A DNA stretch of 41,481 nt from Paracoccaceae bacterium (GCA_046589965.1 JBKJVF010000232.1:1-41481); one strand, 5' to 3'. Counted from the first letter of the stretch, positions 15,118 through 29,132 are shown. Notes: a model not told the origin generated them from the letters alone. A program made the numbers and translations.

Positions 15118-15951
15118 TTAGAAACCGTACACCAGCGAAACACCAAGTTTGTTTTCGCTGCGCACCGCACGGCTATCGTTGTATTCCGTGAGGTAGCTCA
15201 CACGGGTAGCAAACGCGTCGGACATCTGAAAATTGACGCCCAGGTCATTGTTGACCCGAAGCGCGGAGTCAGACTTCAAAACGTCGGTGTCCATCGTCGC
15301 GAAGATCGTGTCGTTGAACTTGTGATAGAACCGCGAAGACGCGATGTATCCGATCTCGGTGTCGTTGCCGCCAGCGCCGTTCTCAAGATAGCTGGCACCG
15401 ACGCCAGCCTGCAGGCGCCAGGTCGTCTGGGGCGTATTGATGACCCGGTAGCCCGGACCAAAACCGAGGAAACCGTCGGTCGCAGTCTCGGTCGCCAGCG
15501 TCGCCAAGCCATCTGTCACAACACGGCCAAGGGCGAACCCGTAGAAATTCTCGGAAAAGTAGTAGTTCGCGTCATAGACGCCGAACACGCTTTCCTCGGA
15601 TTTCACGCCGTCAGTTTCGGAAAACTCAAGGATCATGCCGATCGTCTGGACAAAGGGTCCGGACGCATGACGAATGCGAGCGCCGAGTGTGAAGTCGCTG
15701 CTATCCGATGCACCTGAAGTACCGGAATAGCCAAGCGATGCCGACCCCGACAACCCTTCGCGATACTCCGGACTGCCAAAGCGGTACTCGTCGTTTGCGC
15801 GCTCGATGTCGATGCGGGCCTGGCGCTCGATGTCGTTGATTTCATCATTCACATCACGAATGCCGGTCAATGTCGTCTGTGCCGTCGCCGTGGCCCCCGC
15901 GATCATCAAAGCGATCATCGAGATGCCTGCCAAATGTAGTGTTTTTTTCAT
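15118..15951 (-). CDS. DUF481 family outer-membrane beta-barrel protein (YdiY-like)
   Basis: Signal peptide MKKTLHLAGISMIALMIAGATATAQ. Alternating beta-strand pattern with a C-terminal ..LGVSLVYGF. AAAGGA SD. Confidence 0.8.
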   Translation of the reverse strand: MKKTLHLAGISMIALMIAGATATAQTTLTGIRDVNDEINDIERQARIDIERANDEYRFGSPEYREGLSGSASLGYSGTSGASDSSDFTLGARIRHASGPFVQTIGMILEFSETDGVKSEESVFGVYDANYYFSENFYGFALGRVVTDGLATLATETATDGFLGFGPGYRVINTPQTTWRLQAGVGASYLENGAGGNDTEIGYIASSRFYHKFNDTIFATMDTDVLKSDSALRVNNDLGVNFQMSDAFATRVSYLTEYNDSRAVRSENKLGVSLVYGF

Positions 15952-16238: not shown

Positions 16239-17129
16239 ATGAAAAAACTAATGCTGACAACTGCGGTTCTGACCGCAATGACCCTGCCCGCCATGGCGCA
16301 GGACGGCGTTTTCCGTAACGAGATTACTGCTGGTGCTGTGCGGGCCTCCGACTTGATCGGCGCGCGCATCTATGCGTCCGAGGCTGCGATTGACGCCGAC
16401 GAATATGCAGGCGTCCAGGAAGGCTGGGACGACATCGGCGAGATCAATGATGTGATCATTACGCGTGAAGGCAACATCGAGGCGGTTCTGGTCGATATCG
16501 GTGGGTTCCTTGGTATGGGTGAGCGGCAAGTCGCCGTCGACATGGCTGCATTGCGCTTCGTCTCGGACGGCGCGACCGCGGATAATGCGGACGACTGGTT
16601 CGTGGTCATGAATGCGGACCGTACGATCCTCGAAGGTGCACCCGAATGGTCGATGACTGCGTCTGACATGAACGCGACCGCGACGACCAACACCGAAGCG
16701 GCAACCAATGACGCAGCGGTGACCACGGCCGAACAGACCGACCAGGCCGCCGCGACGGTCGATCCCGAGGCACCTGCCGCGGCCAATGATGGCGCGATGG
16801 CTGATGGCGCGGCCGGCAACGGCCTTGTCCGTGACGGTTACACCAGCCTGGCTGGCACCGACCTGACCGCCGACATGCTGAAAGGCGCGACCGTTTATGA
16901 CGCCGAAGATGCGAATGTCGGCGAAGTCGGCGAGTTGATCCTGAGCGAGGACGGTCAGGTTGAACAGATGGTGATCGACGTAGGTGGCTTTCTCGGCATG
17001 GGCGAAAAGCCTGTCGCCTTGGCGCTCGACCAGGTGGAGATCCTGCGTCAGAACGACGGCAACGACGTCCGCGTTTACGTGTCGCTGTCGAAAGACGAAC
17101 TTGAAGCGATGCCCGACTACAAAATGTGA
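16239..17129 (+). CDS. PRC-barrel domain protein (two PRC barrels, secreted)
   Basis: Start chosen at MKKLMLTTAVLTAMTLPAMAQ (GGAG 7 nt upstream). Two repeats of the ..VLVDIGGFLGMGERQVAV.. / ..MVIDVGGFLGMGEKPVAL.. motif are separated by an Ala/Thr/Asp-rich linker. Confidence 0.85.
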   Translation: MKKLMLTTAVLTAMTLPAMAQDGVFRNEITAGAVRASDLIGARIYASEAAIDADEYAGVQEGWDDIGEINDVIITREGNIEAVLVDIGGFLGMGERQVAVDMAALRFVSDGATADNADDWFVVMNADRTILEGAPEWSMTASDMNATATTNTEAATNDAAVTTAEQTDQAAATVDPEAPAAANDGAMADGAAGNGLVRDGYTSLAGTDLTADMLKGATVYDAEDANVGEVGELILSEDGQVEQMVIDVGGFLGMGEKPVALALDQVEILRQNDGNDVRVYVSLSKDELEAMPDYKM

Positions 17130-17152
17130 TCTGATACGGATCACGATGGAAA

Positions 17153-17176
17153 GGCCCGCATGTGGCGGGCCTTTTT
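17153..17176 (+). terminator. Rho-independent terminator after the PRC-barrel gene
   Basis: GGCCCGC-loop-GCGGGCC followed by TTTTT. Confidence 0.75.
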
Positions 17177-17212
17177 CATGCGTCGACCCCCAGACCGTCT
17201 GGCGCATGAATA

Positions 17213-17238
17213 GGGGCTGCAGGTAACCCTGCAGCCCC
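17213..17238 (-). terminator. perfect hairpin downstream of the DUF1328 gene
   Basis: GGGGCTGCAGG-taac-CCTGCAGCCCC. The U-tract is poor. Confidence 0.5.
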
Positions 17239-17266
17239 TTGCTGTATCGTCCGGTAAAGTCAGTAT

Positions 17267-17485: not shown

Positions 17486-17511
17486 AACGCCACAGCCTTA
17501 AGGGTGGTTCC
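17486..17511 (-). promoter_or_regulatory. EcfG-type promoter motif GGAAC-N17-CGTT upstream of the DUF1328 gene
   Basis: The plus strand reads aacg(17486-17489)-N17-gttcc(17507-17511). Confidence 0.7.
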
Positions 17512-17851: not shown

Positions 17852-19621
17852 TCAGGCCGCTGAAGCATCCGCATCCAATGCGTCATGGGACGAAAGCAGG
17901 GGGAAATCGATGCGGACGAAATAGCTGCCGTCACGCTCTCCGACATTCAGGGTGCCTGACAATTGCGTGGCAAACGCCGACAGAAGCTGTTGGCCCAACC
18001 CTGTGTTGTCGGGGTCGGGCGACAGGGTCGGTCTGCGGCTTTCCGACATCGTGTTGACCACTTCCAGCGCGGCGCGGCCTGCCCCTGCCTCGTGGAACGA
18101 AACGGTCAGCAGGGTCTTTTGGTTTGCATTCTGACCCGAATGTTTCAGGGCATTGGTCAGGGCCTCGGTCAATATCAGCGACAGGGGCACCGCCTGATCG
18201 GGCGTCATCCGGATCCGGTCAAAGCTGGTCTTTGTCTCGATTTGACGGTCGTCCGATGCGCCCCCGCGCACCACCTGTGCCACGATGGTCTGCAACAGCT
18301 CATCCGCCAGCACATCCGTCAGCCCACTGGTCTGGTAAAGTTCGCGGTGCACGATCGCCAGACTCATGACCCGATCATGGAGCCCTTTCAGCAATTGCCG
18401 GGCCTCTGGCGCCACGGATTTGCGCATCTGCAGGTTCATGATCGAGGCGATAAGCTGCAGGTTGTTTTTGACCCGGTGATGAACCTCGCGCAGGAGCACC
18501 TCTTTTTGGTGCAACGAGTTTTCCAGTTCGGCCTCGTCATGCATGACCGACGACATCATCCGCTCATAAGCCTTGCCGACATCACGCAGTTCATTGGGTG
18601 CCAGGCTCAGATCCGGTGGCTTGACGATGCGGCTGCCGTCCGCAAATGCGATGATGGACGCGCGCAAGGCCCGAACATGGCGCAGCACCTGATATTCCGC
18701 CGTCAACCACGCCACCAGCAAACTCGCCAACCACATGGCAAAGGGAAAGACCCATAACGGCACCAATCCAGCCAGCGGCGAACTCGACGCGACGACTGCG
18801 GGCCAGGATGCAAGGACGTACAAGGTCCCGGGAACGATCGGAACCACAGTAAAGGTCCTCCGGTCTCCCAACGGCGTACTGGCCATGAAAGTTGCGGGCG
18901 GCTTATCCACAAATTCCACCAGCGGCATGCCCACGGGAAGCCTTTCGCCAATGGTCTCGATCCCGTAGATCGTCGTCAACACCGTGCCTTCGCCGTCAAA
19001 GGTGATCAGTGCCAACGGTTCAGACAGCTCCAGTTCTTTTTGCATCAAGCTGGGGGATGGATGCTCCAGCACCCTGTGCGGCAGTGACAAGGACACGTAA
19101 CCCAAAACCTCGCCCCCTTCGTCAAAGACCGGATGCGAAAAAATCAGCACGGACTCGCCGCTAACGGGCCCCTTGGGATTAACCTTCATCATAGGTTTGG
19201 GGTCTGCGTTCAATTTTACCAGGGCGGGGTTAAGGCCAAAGTCAAGCGCAACTCCTATGGAGGCGCAGGTTGTTTTTCCATCAGGTTGAATGAAGCCGGC
19301 AAAGCTGATCAAGGGTTCGCTTGCCACCAGCCCCCGCATGACTTCCACGCATGCCGCGCTGTCGTCGATGATGGGACGCACCGTCGTCGCCGTTGCCGCC
19401 GCAAGGCCTTTTGCAAGGTTTATCGCGGCAATTTGCGGCGTCGCTGCCAGAAGTGTTTCCCCAAAAAGCGCGGTTTGCCACCGCGCCTGCGCCTCCGATT
19501 CAAATTTTTCCGTCTGGAAAAAGGCCAGCAGCGCCAGGGGAGTAAGCGCAAGTGCCACGGCCGCCAACAATCGCACGCCAAGCCGACCGAAAAGTTGGCC
19601 GCGCAACGCGCGAGTGATCAT
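17852..19621 (-). CDS. HisKA_2/HWE-type sensor histidine kinase (PhyK-like GSR kinase)
   Basis: 589 aa. N-terminal TM, a periplasmic segment of about 250 aa and a second TM. H-box HHRVKNNLQLIASIMNLQ and a C-terminal ATPase region (LTEALTNALKHS, GLGQQLL). The start overlaps the ecfG stop (ATGA). Confidence 0.88.
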   Translation of the reverse strand: MITRALRGQLFGRLGVRLLAAVALALTPLALLAFFQTEKFESEAQARWQTALFGETLLAATPQIAAINLAKGLAAATATTVRPIIDDSAACVEVMRGLVASEPLISFAGFIQPDGKTTCASIGVALDFGLNPALVKLNADPKPMMKVNPKGPVSGESVLIFSHPVFDEGGEVLGYVSLSLPHRVLEHPSPSLMQKELELSEPLALITFDGEGTVLTTIYGIETIGERLPVGMPLVEFVDKPPATFMASTPLGDRRTFTVVPIVPGTLYVLASWPAVVASSSPLAGLVPLWVFPFAMWLASLLVAWLTAEYQVLRHVRALRASIIAFADGSRIVKPPDLSLAPNELRDVGKAYERMMSSVMHDEAELENSLHQKEVLLREVHHRVKNNLQLIASIMNLQMRKSVAPEARQLLKGLHDRVMSLAIVHRELYQTSGLTDVLADELLQTIVAQVVRGGASDDRQIETKTSFDRIRMTPDQAVPLSLILTEALTNALKHSGQNANQKTLLTVSFHEAGAGRAALEVVNTMSESRRPTLSPDPDNTGLGQQLLSAFATQLSGTLNVGERDGSYFVRIDFPLLSSHDALDADASAA

Positions 19622-20196
19622 GCGACTGCCAACCCGGATTGAAACACAACCCCCAAAGTCACGGCTTCGGTCAGGACAGGATTTCCGGTTGGACTGCTCA
19701 TCCCCATCATGTTTGCCAACTGCGCCCGGGCGCGACTTGCGCGGCTTTTGGCCGTGCCGGTCGCCACACCCATCATCTGCGCGGCTTCCTCGTAGGAATA
19801 TCCGTTTGCGCCAACAAGGGTCAGCACCTCGCGATGTTCGGCAGAAAGCTTGTTGAAGGCGACCATGAATTCACCCAAGGCAAGCCGTCCGTCATGCTGA
19901 GGCAATACCGCAAGCTTGCTTGCGTGAATGCCGTCGGGATCGGACACTTCGCGGCTGACCTTGCGGTGATAGGAAAAGAACGTGTTGCGCAGGATGGTGA
20001 ACAACCACGCCCGCAAATCCGTGCCGGGCGTAAACTTGTCGATGTTCGACCAAGCCTTGACGATCGTATCCTGAACCAGGTCATCCGCTGTGGCGTGATT
20101 GCGCGCCAACGACATTGCGAACGCACGCAAGTCGCGGATATGGAGGGTGATGTTGTCGCGCGGGTCGGCGCTGCCGCTTTCTAGCGATGCTTTCAT
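19618..20196 (-). CDS. ecfG: ECF sigma factor EcfG (general stress response sigma factor)
   Basis: DLVQDTIVKAWSNIDKFTPGTDLRAWLFTILRNTFFSYHRK (region 2) and YSYEEAAQMMGVATGTAKSRASRAR (region 4). Lies between nepR and the kinase with ATGA overlaps on both sides. Confidence 0.9.
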   Translation of the reverse strand: MKASLESGSADPRDNITLHIRDLRAFAMSLARNHATADDLVQDTIVKAWSNIDKFTPGTDLRAWLFTILRNTFFSYHRKVSREVSDPDGIHASKLAVLPQHDGRLALGEFMVAFNKLSAEHREVLTLVGANGYSYEEAAQMMGVATGTAKSRASRARAQLANMMGMSSPTGNPVLTEAVTLGVVFQSGLAVA

Positions 20197-20393
20197 GACT
20201 TCCCTTCCCGGTCCTTCAGCTGTGCCAAAAGCTGGATGAACCTGTCCGGCACTTCTTCTGTCAGCGTGGCATTATATACCCGCCTCAGGTTGTCTTCGAT
20301 CTCACGTGCCAAGGCTATCTGCGCGCTGCGCTTCGGCTTGACAACGTGGACGGTTTGTTCGCTGTCGATCTTCTTTGCCATGTCCCCTGACAC
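20193..20393 (-). CDS. nepR: NepR family anti-sigma factor
   Basis: 66 aa, with IEDNLRRVYNATLTEEVPDRFIQLLAQLKD matching the NepR signature. The start is ambiguous: GTG at 20393 or ATG at 20381. Confidence 0.85.
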   Translation of the reverse strand: MSGDMAKKIDSEQTVHVVKPKRSAQIALAREIEDNLRRVYNATLTEEVPDRFIQLLAQLKDREGKS

Positions 20394-20421
20394 TATTTTT
20401 TGCCCCGTGATAGTTTGTCAT

Positions 20422-20447
20422 GGAACTTAACGCGGCACTAGAGCGTT
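20422..20447 (+). promoter_or_regulatory. EcfG-type promoter GGAAC-N17-CGTT for phyR
   Basis: GGAAC(20422-20426)-N17-CGTT(20444-20447), 40 nt before the phyR ATG. Confidence 0.8.
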
Positions 20448-20454
20448 GGGTTCC
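20429..20454 (-). promoter_or_regulatory. EcfG-type promoter GGAAC-N17-CGTT for nepR-ecfG-kinase
   Basis: The plus strand reads aacg(20429-20432)-N17-gttcc(20450-20454). It fully interdigitates with the phyR promoter on the other strand. Confidence 0.8.
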
Positions 20455-20486
20455 ATCGAACTGATCAAAAAAGTGGGGAAGTGCAG

Positions 20487-21296
20487 ATGCCGTTTCAGGA
20501 AAAGCAAAGTGTCAGCGAGACAATTGGAAAAAATCTTCCATTTCTGCGCCGGTACGGTCGTGCGTTGACGGGAAACCAAAGCTCCGGTGATCGTTTTGCT
20601 GCGGCTACTCTGGAAGCGATACTTGCAGACCAGTCATTGATATCAGATGCAACCGATCACAAGGCGGCGCTCTTCAAGGCCTTTCATAGTCTTTGGTCCG
20701 GCACAGGCGCAATCTTGGGGACGCCCGACAGTTCCCTCTCGGCACGAGCCCAAGACCACATGGCGATGCTGACCCCGAACTCGCGCGAGGCTCTGCTGCT
20801 GAGCATCATCGAAGGTTTTACCACTGACCAGATTGCCTACATTCTGCAGACCGATCAGGAGGACGTCTCAGGCCTTGTGGCGGTTGCGTTCGCGGACATG
20901 GAGGCGTCGGTTGCGGGTGCGGTGATGGTGATCGAGGACGAGGCGATCATTGCCGCCGATATCGTAGACATCGTCCGAGGCGCCGGCCACCGCGTGACAG
21001 GCACCGCGCGCACCAAAGCGGAGGCTGTTGCCCTTGCCTTGCGTGATCGTCCGGACCTGATCCTTGCCGATATCCAGTTGGCGGACAAGTCATCGGGGAT
21101 CGACGCGGTCAACGAAATCCTGATCGAGTTTCCGCAGACGCCGGTGATCTTCATCACGGCCTTCCCAGACCGGCTGTTGACAGGTGAACGGCCGGAACCA
21201 GCCTTTGTGATCACAAAGCCGTTTTCCGAAGAACAGGTGCGCTCTGCCGTCGGGCAGGCCATGTTCTTTTCTTCGACGGAAACGCTGACCACTTGA
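20487..21296 (+). CDS. phyR: PhyR anti-anti-sigma response regulator (sigma-like N-domain plus receiver)
   Basis: LPFLRRYGRALTGNQSSGDRFAAATLEAIL is the PhyR N-terminal signature. The C-terminal receiver has VMVIEDEAIIAADI, LILADIQLAD and VITKPF. Start taken at the ATG 6 nt after GGGGAAG. Confidence 0.92.
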   Translation: MPFQEKQSVSETIGKNLPFLRRYGRALTGNQSSGDRFAAATLEAILADQSLISDATDHKAALFKAFHSLWSGTGAILGTPDSSLSARAQDHMAMLTPNSREALLLSIIEGFTTDQIAYILQTDQEDVSGLVAVAFADMEASVAGAVMVIEDEAIIAADIVDIVRGAGHRVTGTARTKAEAVALALRDRPDLILADIQLADKSSGIDAVNEILIEFPQTPVIFITAFPDRLLTGERPEPAFVITKPFSEEQVRSAVGQAMFFSSTETLTT

Positions 21297-25235: not shown

Positions 25236-25697
25236 TCAGGTCGGCAGTTCAGGAGATGCCAACAGCGACACAAGCTGGCCTCTCATCTCGTGCAATGCCG
25301 CATCATGGCCTTGCGGCAAGCTTGTCGCGATCGCCCGGTCGAACGCCTCAAGGACGTAGTCTTCACCTGACCGGATCTGTTTCATCGTGTCGGCATCGAT
25401 GTGATCGAACATGGCACGCATCGACACGACGGCGCGGTTCACCGTCCCCATGAACGACCCTTCGGCATCAGGAACGGCACCCATTTCACGAACCATCTGA
25501 TCAAGTCGCGCCAAGTGACGGGTGTGCAGCGCCAAAAACCTTTGAACGACTGCTCCAAACGAAGGTTCCGCTTTTTCCGCCATCTTTTCGAACCCACGAT
25601 GGGTGTCCACGGTCTGCCTATGCAGGTCGATAAGGGCGTCCAGGCTCTCACCCGCGGGGTCATTATTTGCGGCGGACGTTGAATCGTAACTCGTCAT
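25236..25697 (-). CDS. PA2169/DUF2383-like four-helix-bundle (ferritin-like) protein
   Basis: 153 aa. LIDLHRQTVDTHRGFEKMAEKAEP and SGEDYVLEAFDRAI resemble the PA2169 family. GGAG SD. Confidence 0.7.
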   Translation of the reverse strand: MTSYDSTSAANNDPAGESLDALIDLHRQTVDTHRGFEKMAEKAEPSFGAVVQRFLALHTRHLARLDQMVREMGAVPDAEGSFMGTVNRAVVSMRAMFDHIDADTMKQIRSGEDYVLEAFDRAIATSLPQGHDAALHEMRGQLVSLLASPELPT

Positions 25698-25734: not shown

Positions 25735-25759
25735 AACGCAGCCAGGCCCTGCCGGTTCC
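25735..25759 (-). promoter_or_regulatory. EcfG-type promoter motif GGAAC-N16-CGTT upstream of the PA2169-like operon
   Basis: The plus strand reads aacg(25735-25738)-N16-gttcc(25755-25759). It probably serves the 25697-23278 four-gene operon, because no motif was found in the internal 71-nt gap. Confidence 0.75.
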
Positions 25760-25796: not shown

Positions 25797-25821
25797 GGAA
25801 CCAATCGAAAGCTCGGGCGTT
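25797..25821 (+). promoter_or_regulatory. EcfG-type promoter motif GGAAC-N16-CGTT (drives candidate sRNA 1)
   Basis: GGAAC(25797-25801)-N16-CGTT(25818-25821). It lies back to back (37 nt apart) with the promoter at 25735-25759. Confidence 0.7.
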
Positions 25822-25827
25822 AATAAA

Positions 25828-25947
25828 GCGAACCGGTCTGGATCAGCTTTTCCCTAGGCTGTTTCTGTTCCCTCTCCCGCCGGTTCCACGCTCTCTTCCC
25901 CAGAGAATGTGACTGAGGCCGCAGGTTTGTCCTGCGGCCTTTTTTTT
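25828..25947 (+). ncRNA. candidate EcfG-dependent small RNA 1 (about 120 nt, C-rich anti-SD-like loops)
   Basis: It lies between an exact EcfG motif and a strong intrinsic terminator. There is no ORF: the only ATG is followed immediately by TGA. Predicted stems are AGCGAACCGG/CCGGTTccaCGCT, CAGC-UUUUCCCUAG-GCUG and UCUCU-UCCCC-AGAGA. The core is GUUCCCUCUCCCGCCGGUUCC (25867-25887). The 5' end is estimated from -10 spacing. Confidence 0.55.
25917..25947 (+). terminator. Rho-independent terminator of candidate sRNA 1
   Basis: GGCCGCAGG-tttgt-CCTGCGGCC followed by eight T. Confidence 0.85.
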
Positions 25948-25981
25948 CGCATGCGGCAGTGGCAGATGCCGACAGTGATCG

Positions 25982-26007
25982 GGAACTGATGTCTGCCAAG
26001 CGGTGTT
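25982..26007 (+). promoter_or_regulatory. near-consensus EcfG-type motif GGAAC-N17-TGTT upstream of the DUF892 gene
   Basis: GGAAC(25982-25986)-N17-TGTT(26004-26007), 53 nt before the ATG at 26060. Confidence 0.5.
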
Positions 26008-26059: not shown

Positions 26060-26596
26060 ATGGCCACGACCAAAACCGCCGCAGCTGCACGTCCGGCAAG
26101 CGACACGATCGAAAGCTCGCCCCTGGGTGCGCTCTTCGAGCATGCCTTGAAGGACATCTATTACTCCGAAAAGAAGATCTACAAATCGCTTCCCAAGATG
26201 ATCAAGGCGGCATCAGACCCCGGCTTGAAAGAAGCCCTGACGATGCACCGTGAAGAAACGGCGGGGCAGATCGAGGTTCTTGAACAAGTGTTCGAAAACA
26301 TTGGCAAGCGCGCCAAGGCCGAGAAGTGTGATGCGATCGACGGCATCCTGGACGAAGGCAACGGCCTTCTGGAAGATTTCGGCAAGACGGACGCTGGGGA
26401 CGCTGCAATCGTGTTCTCGTGTCAGGCGATCGAACATTATGAGATTACGCGTTACGGCTCGATGATCGCCTTTGCCAACGCCCTTGGCTATTCCGAAGCC
26501 GCTGACATGATTTCGGGGATTTTGGCTCAGGAGCATGCCGCCGACGTAAAGCTGAGCGAAATCGCAGAAGGCTACATCAACCAAGCTGCGGCTTGA
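26060..26596 (+). CDS. DUF892 ferritin-like protein (YciE/YciF family)
   Basis: LFEHALKDIYYSEKKIYKSLPKMIKAA..LKEALTMHREETAGQIEVLEQVFE matches the YciE/YciF family. Confidence 0.9.
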   Translation: MATTKTAAAARPASDTIESSPLGALFEHALKDIYYSEKKIYKSLPKMIKAASDPGLKEALTMHREETAGQIEVLEQVFENIGKRAKAEKCDAIDGILDEGNGLLEDFGKTDAGDAAIVFSCQAIEHYEITRYGSMIAFANALGYSEAADMISGILAQEHAADVKLSEIAEGYINQAAA

Positions 26597-28763: not shown

Positions 28764-28788
28764 GGAACTTGCCCGCTCCACGCGCGTT
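28764..28788 (+). promoter_or_regulatory. EcfG-type promoter motif GGAAC-N16-CGTT upstream of the small PRC-barrel gene
   Basis: GGAAC(28764-28768)-N16-CGTT(28785-28788), 48 nt before the ATG at 28836. Confidence 0.75.
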
Positions 28789-28835: not shown

Positions 28836-29132
28836 ATGGATCACACCCTTCACCAACCGCTGGACGCCAGCGACATGACCGAAGCCAATCTCGTCGATGC
28901 CGTCATCTACGGCGCTGACGATTACGAAATCGGAACCGTGGCCCACGTTCATGGCAGCGGTCCTGCCAGCCAGGTCATCGTCGATGTGGGCGGATTTCTG
29001 GGAATTGGCAGCAAGATGGTGGCACTGAACGCAAGCCAGTTGCAGTTCATGCGCGACGAAGACGGTGTTGTGCACGCGGTCACCGCCTGGACGAAGGATC
29101 AGGTGGAGCAACTTCCCGAACACCACCACTGA
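28836..29132 (+). CDS. PRC-barrel domain protein (single domain, 98 aa)
   Basis: ANLVDAVIYGADDYEIGTVAHV...VIVDVGGFLGIGSKMVAL is the same motif as in the 16239 gene. AAAGGAA SD. Confidence 0.85.
   Translation: MDHTLHQPLDASDMTEANLVDAVIYGADDYEIGTVAHVHGSGPASQVIVDVGGFLGIGSKMVALNASQLQFMRDEDGVVHAVTAWTKDQVEQLPEHHH

Follow-up and report, generated by a model that had tools for sequence, protein, structure and literature searches.

A candidate EcfG-dependent small RNA with C-rich unpaired elements near a general stress response locus in Rhodobacterales

Stress-induced small RNAs (sRNAs) with C-rich anti-Shine-Dalgarno (anti-SD) loops are known from Alphaproteobacteria, with CcsR1-4 and alpha-r14 as examples, and CcsR is carried by Rhodobacterales. 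The CcsR genes follow a DUF1127 gene as a tandem array and have an RpoHI/HII promoter. EcfG-dependent sRNAs are central to stress survival in Caulobacter, and have been predicted mainly by position in the Rhizobiales. GsrN of Caulobacter crescentus is a sigmaT/EcfG-dependent RNA of about 100 nt that ends in an intrinsic terminator; through the C-rich loop in its 5' part it binds to G-rich sites in mRNAs, with activation of katG, and it is stabilised by Hfq (Tien et al., 2018, PMC5869019). [quoted passage not shown] No EcfG-dependent sRNA described for Rhodobacterales was found in our literature searches.

The window analyzed here is a stretch of 41,481 nucleotides from Paracoccaceae bacterium (GCA_046589965.1 JBKJVF010000232.1:1-41481), in which a preliminary description had proposed a candidate GSR-dependent sRNA at positions 25797-25947. 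With a probability of roughly two in three, we read this segment as a stand-alone gene for a non-coding sRNA of ~119 nt, which would be EcfG-dependent and act in trans by pairing with G-rich ribosome-binding regions, in the manner of GsrN. It shares with GsrN an EcfG/SigT-type promoter, a length of ~100-120 nt, an intrinsic terminator, 5' C-rich exposure and a position near phyR-nepR-ecfG. The three features of GsrN-like RNAs in Tien et al. [quoted passage not shown] Unlike GsrN, the present RNA is from Rhodobacterales and is always divergent from a DUF2383 operon, and it has three C/U-rich elements of the CUUCCCU type, whereas GsrN has one poly-C loop. No sequence relationship between the two RNAs is known. 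The 5' domain agrees with the description given for the Rhizobiaceae GsrN-like candidates, in which a stem that includes the 5' terminus is accompanied by a small hairpin and by C-rich sequence left unpaired. More generally, the segment has the features of a trans-acting sRNA of the Hfq type: its own promoter, a U-tailed Rho-independent terminator, no ORF and a conserved, covarying structure.

The promoter sequence at 25797-25821, GGAACCAATCGAAAGCTCGGGCGTT, conforms exactly to the EcfG pattern of Alphaproteobacteria, GGAAC-N16/17-CGTT (Table 1). A pattern search thus recovered the motif as it had been described, and also its arrangement back to back with the promoter of the PA2169-like (DUF2383) operon on the minus strand. 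In the window, 14 exact EcfG motifs were counted as compared to 0.79 expected, which is an 18-fold enrichment that was not reached by any of 100 shuffles. Among the 14 homologues of the sRNA gene presented below (alignment A4), the GGAAC of this promoter is kept in all, and the -10 element reads CGTT in 11, TGTT in two and GGTT in one. An antisense promoter within the sRNA gene, for which CGGTTCC of stem P1 would serve as a minus-strand -35 element, was considered and rejected, with no correctly spaced -10 element in 13 of the 14 homologues.

The core GSR regulators (19618-21296) are located about 4.5 kb from the sRNA gene in the window, near it and not immediately adjacent. The same distance of about 4.5 kb to phyR-nepR-ecfG was found in all three genomes where it could be checked (the window, L149 and L150), and the gene order in L149, with a DUF2383 identity of 57%, and in L150 is sRNA, DUF2383 operon, Crp, phyR, nepR, ecfG and kinase. 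The window as a whole is a GSR island, in which the kinase, ecfG, nepR and phyR are found along with the 14 exact EcfG motifs. These motifs precede a 2813-codon ORF (14932), small membrane or CsbD-like genes (17486, 17812), a PNPOx gene (23198) and an AI-2E permease gene (28706), among others. The motif at 28764-28788 (+) was tried as the promoter of a second sRNA and rejected, since it drives a 98-codon ORF (28836-29132) that has no Pfam match and resembles a PRC-barrel protein by eye.

Table 1. Coordinates of the putative sRNA gene, its predicted elements and the neighbouring genes in the window
Feature	Position	Strand	Detail
HWE/HisKA_2 kinase	17852-19621	-	
ecfG	19618-20196	-	Pfam; core GSR regulator
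nepR	20196-20381	-	Pfam; core GSR regulator
phyR	20488-21296	+	Pfam; core GSR regulator
DUF2383 (PA2169-like) gene, first of the divergent operon	25236-25697	-	Pfam PF09537
Promoter of the divergent DUF2383 stress operon (GGAACCGGCAGGGCCTGGCTGCGTT)	25735-25759	-	Exact GGAAC-N16-CGTT; DUF2383 gene directly downstream
EcfG-type promoter of the sRNA	25797-25821	+	Exact GGAAC-N16-CGTT; -35 GGAAC 25797-25801, -10 CGTT 25818-25821
Predicted sRNA transcript, ~119 nt	25829-25947	+	5' end placed from promoter spacing
5' domain closed by P1	25830-25886	+	GAACCG 25830-25835 pairs with CGGUUC 25881-25886
Inner hairpin P1a (CAGCUU / AGGCUG)	25844-25861	+	Loop UUCCCU 25850-25855; family consensus loop CUUCCCUC
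Unpaired C-rich linker UUCCCUCUCCC	25868-25878	+	Unpaired in MFE and centroid folds; family consensus CUUGUCCC
Hairpin P2	25887-25911	+	Loop UCCCC 25897-25901; family consensus loop CUUCCCU
Intrinsic terminator, 11-bp stem and U8	25915-25947	+	Terminator scan
Near-consensus EcfG promoter of DUF892	25982-26007	+	GGAAC-N17-TGTT, one base off consensus
DUF892 gene, downstream neighbour outside the sRNA unit	26060-26596	+	Pfam PF05974, E = 1.9e-51

The promoter had been said to be followed by about 120 nt with no ORF and by a terminator with a 9-bp GC stem and T8, and both statements were borne out. No ORF of 12 or more codons was found in the window transcript. The terminator scan identified a core composed of GGCCGCAGG (25917-25925), the loop UUUGU, CCUGCGGCC (25931-25939) and T8 (25940-25947), of which the stem extends to 11 pairs over positions 25915-25941.

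We searched for homologues from both flanking genes. The search anchored on DUF892, with one genome per GTDB species, yielded 80 loci, among which nhmmer and covariance model R1 identified the sRNA at the same place in four Rhodobacterales/Gemmobacter metagenome-assembled genomes (MAGs; L001, L003, L004, L009), where the DUF2383 operon is kept at 57-80% identity (tblastn). In four other loci (L022, L023, L029, L032), both flanking genes are present with a DUF2383 protein that is ~48-49% identical; the sRNA is absent from these, and only two back-to-back EcfG promoters are found between the flanking genes. The search anchored on DUF2383 gave nine homologues with 55-78% identity that were traced to contigs. 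Matches to R1 of 66-103 bits were obtained in L136/137, L138, L139/140, L141/142, L143/144, L145, L146 and L147, which are all of the loci down to 57% identity, and the sRNA was not found by R1 in L148 (55% identity). Each of the carriers (L001, L003, L004, L009, L136-L147 and the window) has a single copy by R1 and R2, with scores of 59-128 bits.

In total, the sRNA gene was identified in 14 loci including the window, with 13 clearly distinct sequences, of which 12 are from the 13 further loci. The conservation in relatives that had been proposed as a check is observed, in that promoter, fold and terminator are all conserved in these 13 related Rhodobacterales loci, which keep the DUF2383 operon. 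The sRNA gene is divergent from this operon in 14 of 14 loci and the unit has a length of 121-125 nt. All carriers so far are MAGs or metagenome contigs, and the clade is therefore narrow and uncultured as far as seen.

A pattern scan of metagenome DNA (GGTTCC-N20-45-GGCCGCAGG-N5-CCTGCGGCC) recovered no further copies of the sRNA; the matches, 55 out of 55, are 3' ends of protein genes, mostly on gut-metagenome contigs, and none of them has an EcfG motif. About 40 near-identical gut-metagenome contigs (within L081-L135) share the 3' end of a gene (ending in WNFRVSKGYVKDTFWNRLWFRLTH) together with a GGCCGCAGG/CCTGCGGCC terminator. This gene has the look of a widespread one, either mobile or strongly conserved, and is unrelated to the sRNA. 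In the plasmid collection, the sRNA had no counterpart, and a search with 20 kb of the window gave nothing meaningful. A possible second copy in the window at 17145-17246 (R1, 21 bits) was rejected as a pair of terminators between convergent genes. Two successive GC-rich hairpins are located here, between a gene on the plus strand, whose end is at 17129, and a small gene on the minus strand that has its EcfG promoter at 17486-17511, and they are probably the terminators of these two converging genes.

Folding of positions 25828-25948 gave a minimum free energy (MFE) of -51.3 kcal/mol, with a z-score of -5.8 relative to dinucleotide shuffles, none of which was as good (0 of 200), and the z-scores across five homologues range from -2.75 to -6.2. 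The predicted fold consists of a closing stem, P1, that encloses hairpin P1a and an unpaired strand, followed by hairpin P2 and then by the terminator (Table 1). When the sequences were folded singly, these hairpins were recovered in nearly all homologues. Of the hairpin loops that had been drawn by eye, UUCCCU was recovered as the loop of P1a and UUCCCC, as UCCCC, in P2, while CCCUCUCCC (within 25868-25878) turned out to belong to the unpaired strand inside the P1 loop.

Three unpaired C-rich elements recur in the family: the loop CUUCCCUC, the linker UUGUCCC and the loop CUUCCCU. The P1a loop (loop 1), with the consensus CUUCCCUC or CCUCCCU, is C-rich in 13 of the 14 predicted folds, the exception being L004. 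The linker, with the consensus CUUGUCCC, contains a run of CCC in 11 of the 14 homologues. The P2 loop (loop 2) is of the CUUCCCU type in 11 of the 14 and is not C-rich in L009, L141 and L146. At least two of the three elements are C-rich in each of the 14 homologues.

The stems were examined for covariation in alignment A6, in which 14 sequences were fitted to model R2, a model that includes P1a. Such fitting inflates the pairing counts, an effect that is partly offset by controls with slid partners and by an independent run with MAFFT and RNAalifold. Standard pairs fill 95.8% of the 356 cells in A6, as compared to 35-52% when the partners are slid by 1-3 columns. Changes on both sides were observed at eight pairs in 22 cells, values that none of 500 shuffles reached. 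P1a co-varies at five of its six pairs and P2 at two of five (A6). The sequence of the P1a stem differs in almost each homologue and yet it pairs, as exemplified by CAGCUU/AGGCUG, GAUCGGCC/GGCCGAUC, CCGCCUG/CGGGCGG, CCGUUUG/CGAACGG and CAUUCG/CGGAUG. In P2, compensatory changes from U-A to C-G have occurred in three homologues. The independent alignment of the 14 sequences recovered P1, P2 and the terminator, and contained four pairs with double changes. The covariation that the preliminary description suggested looking for was thereby found in the stems, most of all in P1a, and the compensatory changes support the fold as predicted.

The two remaining helices behave differently from P1a. The cells of P1 are paired in 98.8% of cases across the 14 sequences, with all four one-sided changes being G-U wobbles, and the terminator stem is invariant in 13 of the 14 homologues, with one compensatory change from G-C to A-U in L141. 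Since both stems are almost invariant, little evidence of covariation comes from either, and a sequence-specific protein or a constraint at the DNA level might instead be what keeps them constant.

We compared the sRNA to the known RNA families in Rfam 15. No family was identified in the window at its gathering score with cmscan, in agreement with the earlier remark that the sequence was recognized neither as GsrN nor as CcsR. Permissive scans gave recurrent matches below threshold to the 3' half of the RNA (P2 and the terminator). The best similarity was to MmgR/SuhB (RF00519), with 30.0 bits in the window, 34.9 in L138, 31.3 in L139 and 30.0 in L147 against a gathering score of 41, and weaker matches were to anti-hemB, ncS54, ar14, sX13, BjrC1505 and CcsR1; with a cut-off of E <= 10, no other Rfam family was matched. 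All of these are sRNAs with C-rich motifs, and the similarity is therefore one of class rather than of family.

MmgR/SuhB (alpha-r8) shares with the present RNA a small hairpin, a GACU sequence, a GC-rich terminator with a U-tail and a nearby C/U-rich sequence. It differs by its signature single-stranded UUUCCUCCCU block, whose positions are deleted when the window and L138 are aligned to the model, and the present RNA has an extra 5' domain of ~60 nt. SuhB is under the control of a LysR-type regulator, and the SuhB regulon is largely EcfG-independent (bioRxiv 10.64898/2025.12.09.693200). We rejected membership in the MmgR family on account of the score threshold, the missing UUUCCUCCCU motif and the different regulation. 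For the CcsR/alpha-r14 "cuckoo" RNAs, the scores were likewise far below the thresholds (RF02791, 13.2 versus 65.3 bits; RF02344, 21.9 versus 58.8 bits), and the CCUCCUCCC motif of these RNAs is absent from the sRNA sequence of the window. The C-rich loops and the alphaproteobacterial host are shared with CcsR/alpha-r14, with an anti-SD role of the present RNA as a candidate function only. Unlike CcsR1-4 of Rhodobacter sphaeroides, the present gene is single-copy and is not part of a tandem array that follows DUF1127.

If the segment is an sRNA gene of the GsrN kind, RNA polymerase with EcfG would start transcription a few bases after the -10 CGTT, which would place P1 at or near the 5' end, and would halt at the strong U8 terminator. 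The RNA would fold into a 5' domain (P1 around P1a and the unpaired linker), P2 and the terminator, and would thereby display up to three C/U-rich single-stranded elements in the P1a loop, the linker and the P2 loop. These elements would pair with G-rich, SD-like sequences in mRNAs, probably with the assistance of Hfq, and the sRNA would extend the general stress response by a post-transcriptional arm, like GsrN in Caulobacter. The direction of the putative regulation may follow either precedent, activation as by GsrN or repression as by most anti-SD sRNAs.

No statistically convincing target emerged when duplex scans were run on the window, L149 and L150 and the translation-initiation regions (TIRs) were ranked. 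Of all matches of loop 2 (CUUCCCCA) to either strand of the window, its own antisense aside, the best is the 8-bp one to UGGGGAAG, which is the Shine-Dalgarno sequence (SD) of phyR in the window, located 8-15 nt upstream of the start codon. In L150, the phyR SD UGAGGGAA matches UUCCCUCG of loop 1, and in L149 the phyR SD GGGGG matches a lineage-specific CCCCC of loop 1. A tract of A6-7 is located just upstream of the G-rich phyR SD in all three. Among the local TIRs, phyR ranks 6 of 17, 3 of 16 and 2 of 17 in the three genomes, and the three GSR regulators come near the top, with ecfG at rank one in the window, nepR at rank two in L149 and phyR at rank two in L150; none of these ranks is significant. 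A feedback on the general stress response, by pairing of the C-rich loops with the SD region of phyR and possibly of nepR-ecfG, is a speculative and on balance unlikely extension of the main reading. The phyR leaders (20455-20490 in the window; 15166-15200 (-) in L149; 15640-15675 (-) in L150) have an unusually G-rich SD (UGGGGAAG, GUGGGGG and GAGGGAA), and most of the other nearby GSR genes have GAAAGGA instead.

The invariant helices lead to the alternative that survives best, although we consider it improbable: a structured non-coding RNA that acts mainly by binding a protein, for example by titration, with GAACCG/CGGUUCC and GGCCGCAGG/CCUGCGGCC as the recognition elements. The near-invariance of P1 and the terminator stem among homologues with DUF2383 proteins that are only 57-80% identical, and with a P1a that drifts freely, fits such a role, and the duplex scans yielded no significant local mRNA target. 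On the other hand, recurrent unpaired C/U-rich sequence is the hallmark of the pairing seeds of GsrN, CcsR, sX13 and mmgR, and the weak similarities in Rfam are all to sRNAs with C-rich motifs. Invariant terminator stems are also found in base-pairing sRNAs, and no candidate protein partner is encoded adjacent to the gene.

A still smaller probability is assigned to a non-functional by-product, in which a duplicated EcfG promoter and a terminator merely insulate the divergent and tandem stress genes from one another. The two halves of P1 (GAACCG, 25830-25835; CGGUUCC, 25881-25887) look like the -35 box GGAACC, in both orientations, and the relatives that are devoid of the unit (L022, L023, L029 and L032) show only back-to-back -35 boxes, which makes an origin by local duplication possible. 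A junk spacer would however not be expected to keep its length of 121-125 nt and four helices with compensatory changes, nor its C-rich unpaired loops when the neighbouring proteins have diverged to 57% identity, and the unit is kept even where the downstream gene that it would insulate has been lost. The sRNA gene itself may descend from a duplicated promoter region.

The downstream gene, DUF892, bears on another reading, in which the unit is a cis-acting leader or attenuator of DUF892, with a stop at 25947 and read-through under some signal. The unit is co-oriented with DUF892, from which only ~110 nt separate it in the window, and DUF892 follows the unit in nine of the 14 loci. However, in L136/137, L143/144, L146 and L147 DUF892 is missing and replaced by a convergent AI-2E permease gene, and the promoter, RNA and terminator are intact in these lineages, which number at least four. 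DUF892 also has an EcfG-type promoter of its own between the terminator and the gene, in which the GGAAC and the GTGTT are invariant in all five of the aligned DUF892-bearing loci (alignment A3). The motif that had been noted at 25982 is thus present and conserved, although it is a near-consensus match (GGAAC-N17-TGTT) and not an exact one. Because the unit is kept without DUF892, and because a separate, conserved promoter for DUF892 comes after the terminator, the unit is not a DUF892 leader, and the concern that the segment might turn out to be the 5' UTR of this gene is answered in the same way. In addition, DUF892 is under the direct control of an EcfG promoter in the distant relatives with no sRNA, and the folds contain no evident anti-terminator alternative to the terminator with its 11-bp stem and U8. 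Synteny has largely refuted this reading, to which we give hardly more than a few chances in a hundred.

A gene for a small protein can be dismissed, since the ORFs of 13-31 codons that occur in some homologues are in different frames and strands and are mutually dissimilar, no ORF of 12 or more codons exists in five of the 14 (the window, L009, L137, L146 and L147), no ORF is conserved across the 14, and the indels within the family (alignment A4) are not multiples of three.

Each of the computational tests that were run supports the reading of the segment as a candidate GSR-dependent sRNA. It constitutes a new RNA family of narrow range and of a known kind, and it is the first such candidate in Rhodobacterales in the literature that we searched. 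The candidate offers a defined promoter, fold and set of seed elements, along with a covariance model that can be used for annotation. Its confirmation would mean that a third order of Alphaproteobacteria has either evolved or kept a post-transcriptional arm in its general stress response, and the sRNA would be a handle on the tuning of the many surrounding GSR genes of "unknown function". The scope is modest, with a narrow clade, carriers that are uncultured as far as found and a regulatory principle that is established.

A second arrangement of this type was observed in a MAG of Rhodobacter sp. (L020, 2108-2275 (+)), where an exact EcfG motif is followed by ~140 nt and then by a U7 terminator. 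The transcript contains GGUCCUUCCCUGCC and scores only 19 bits against model R1, and it may represent a different GSR-dependent sRNA.
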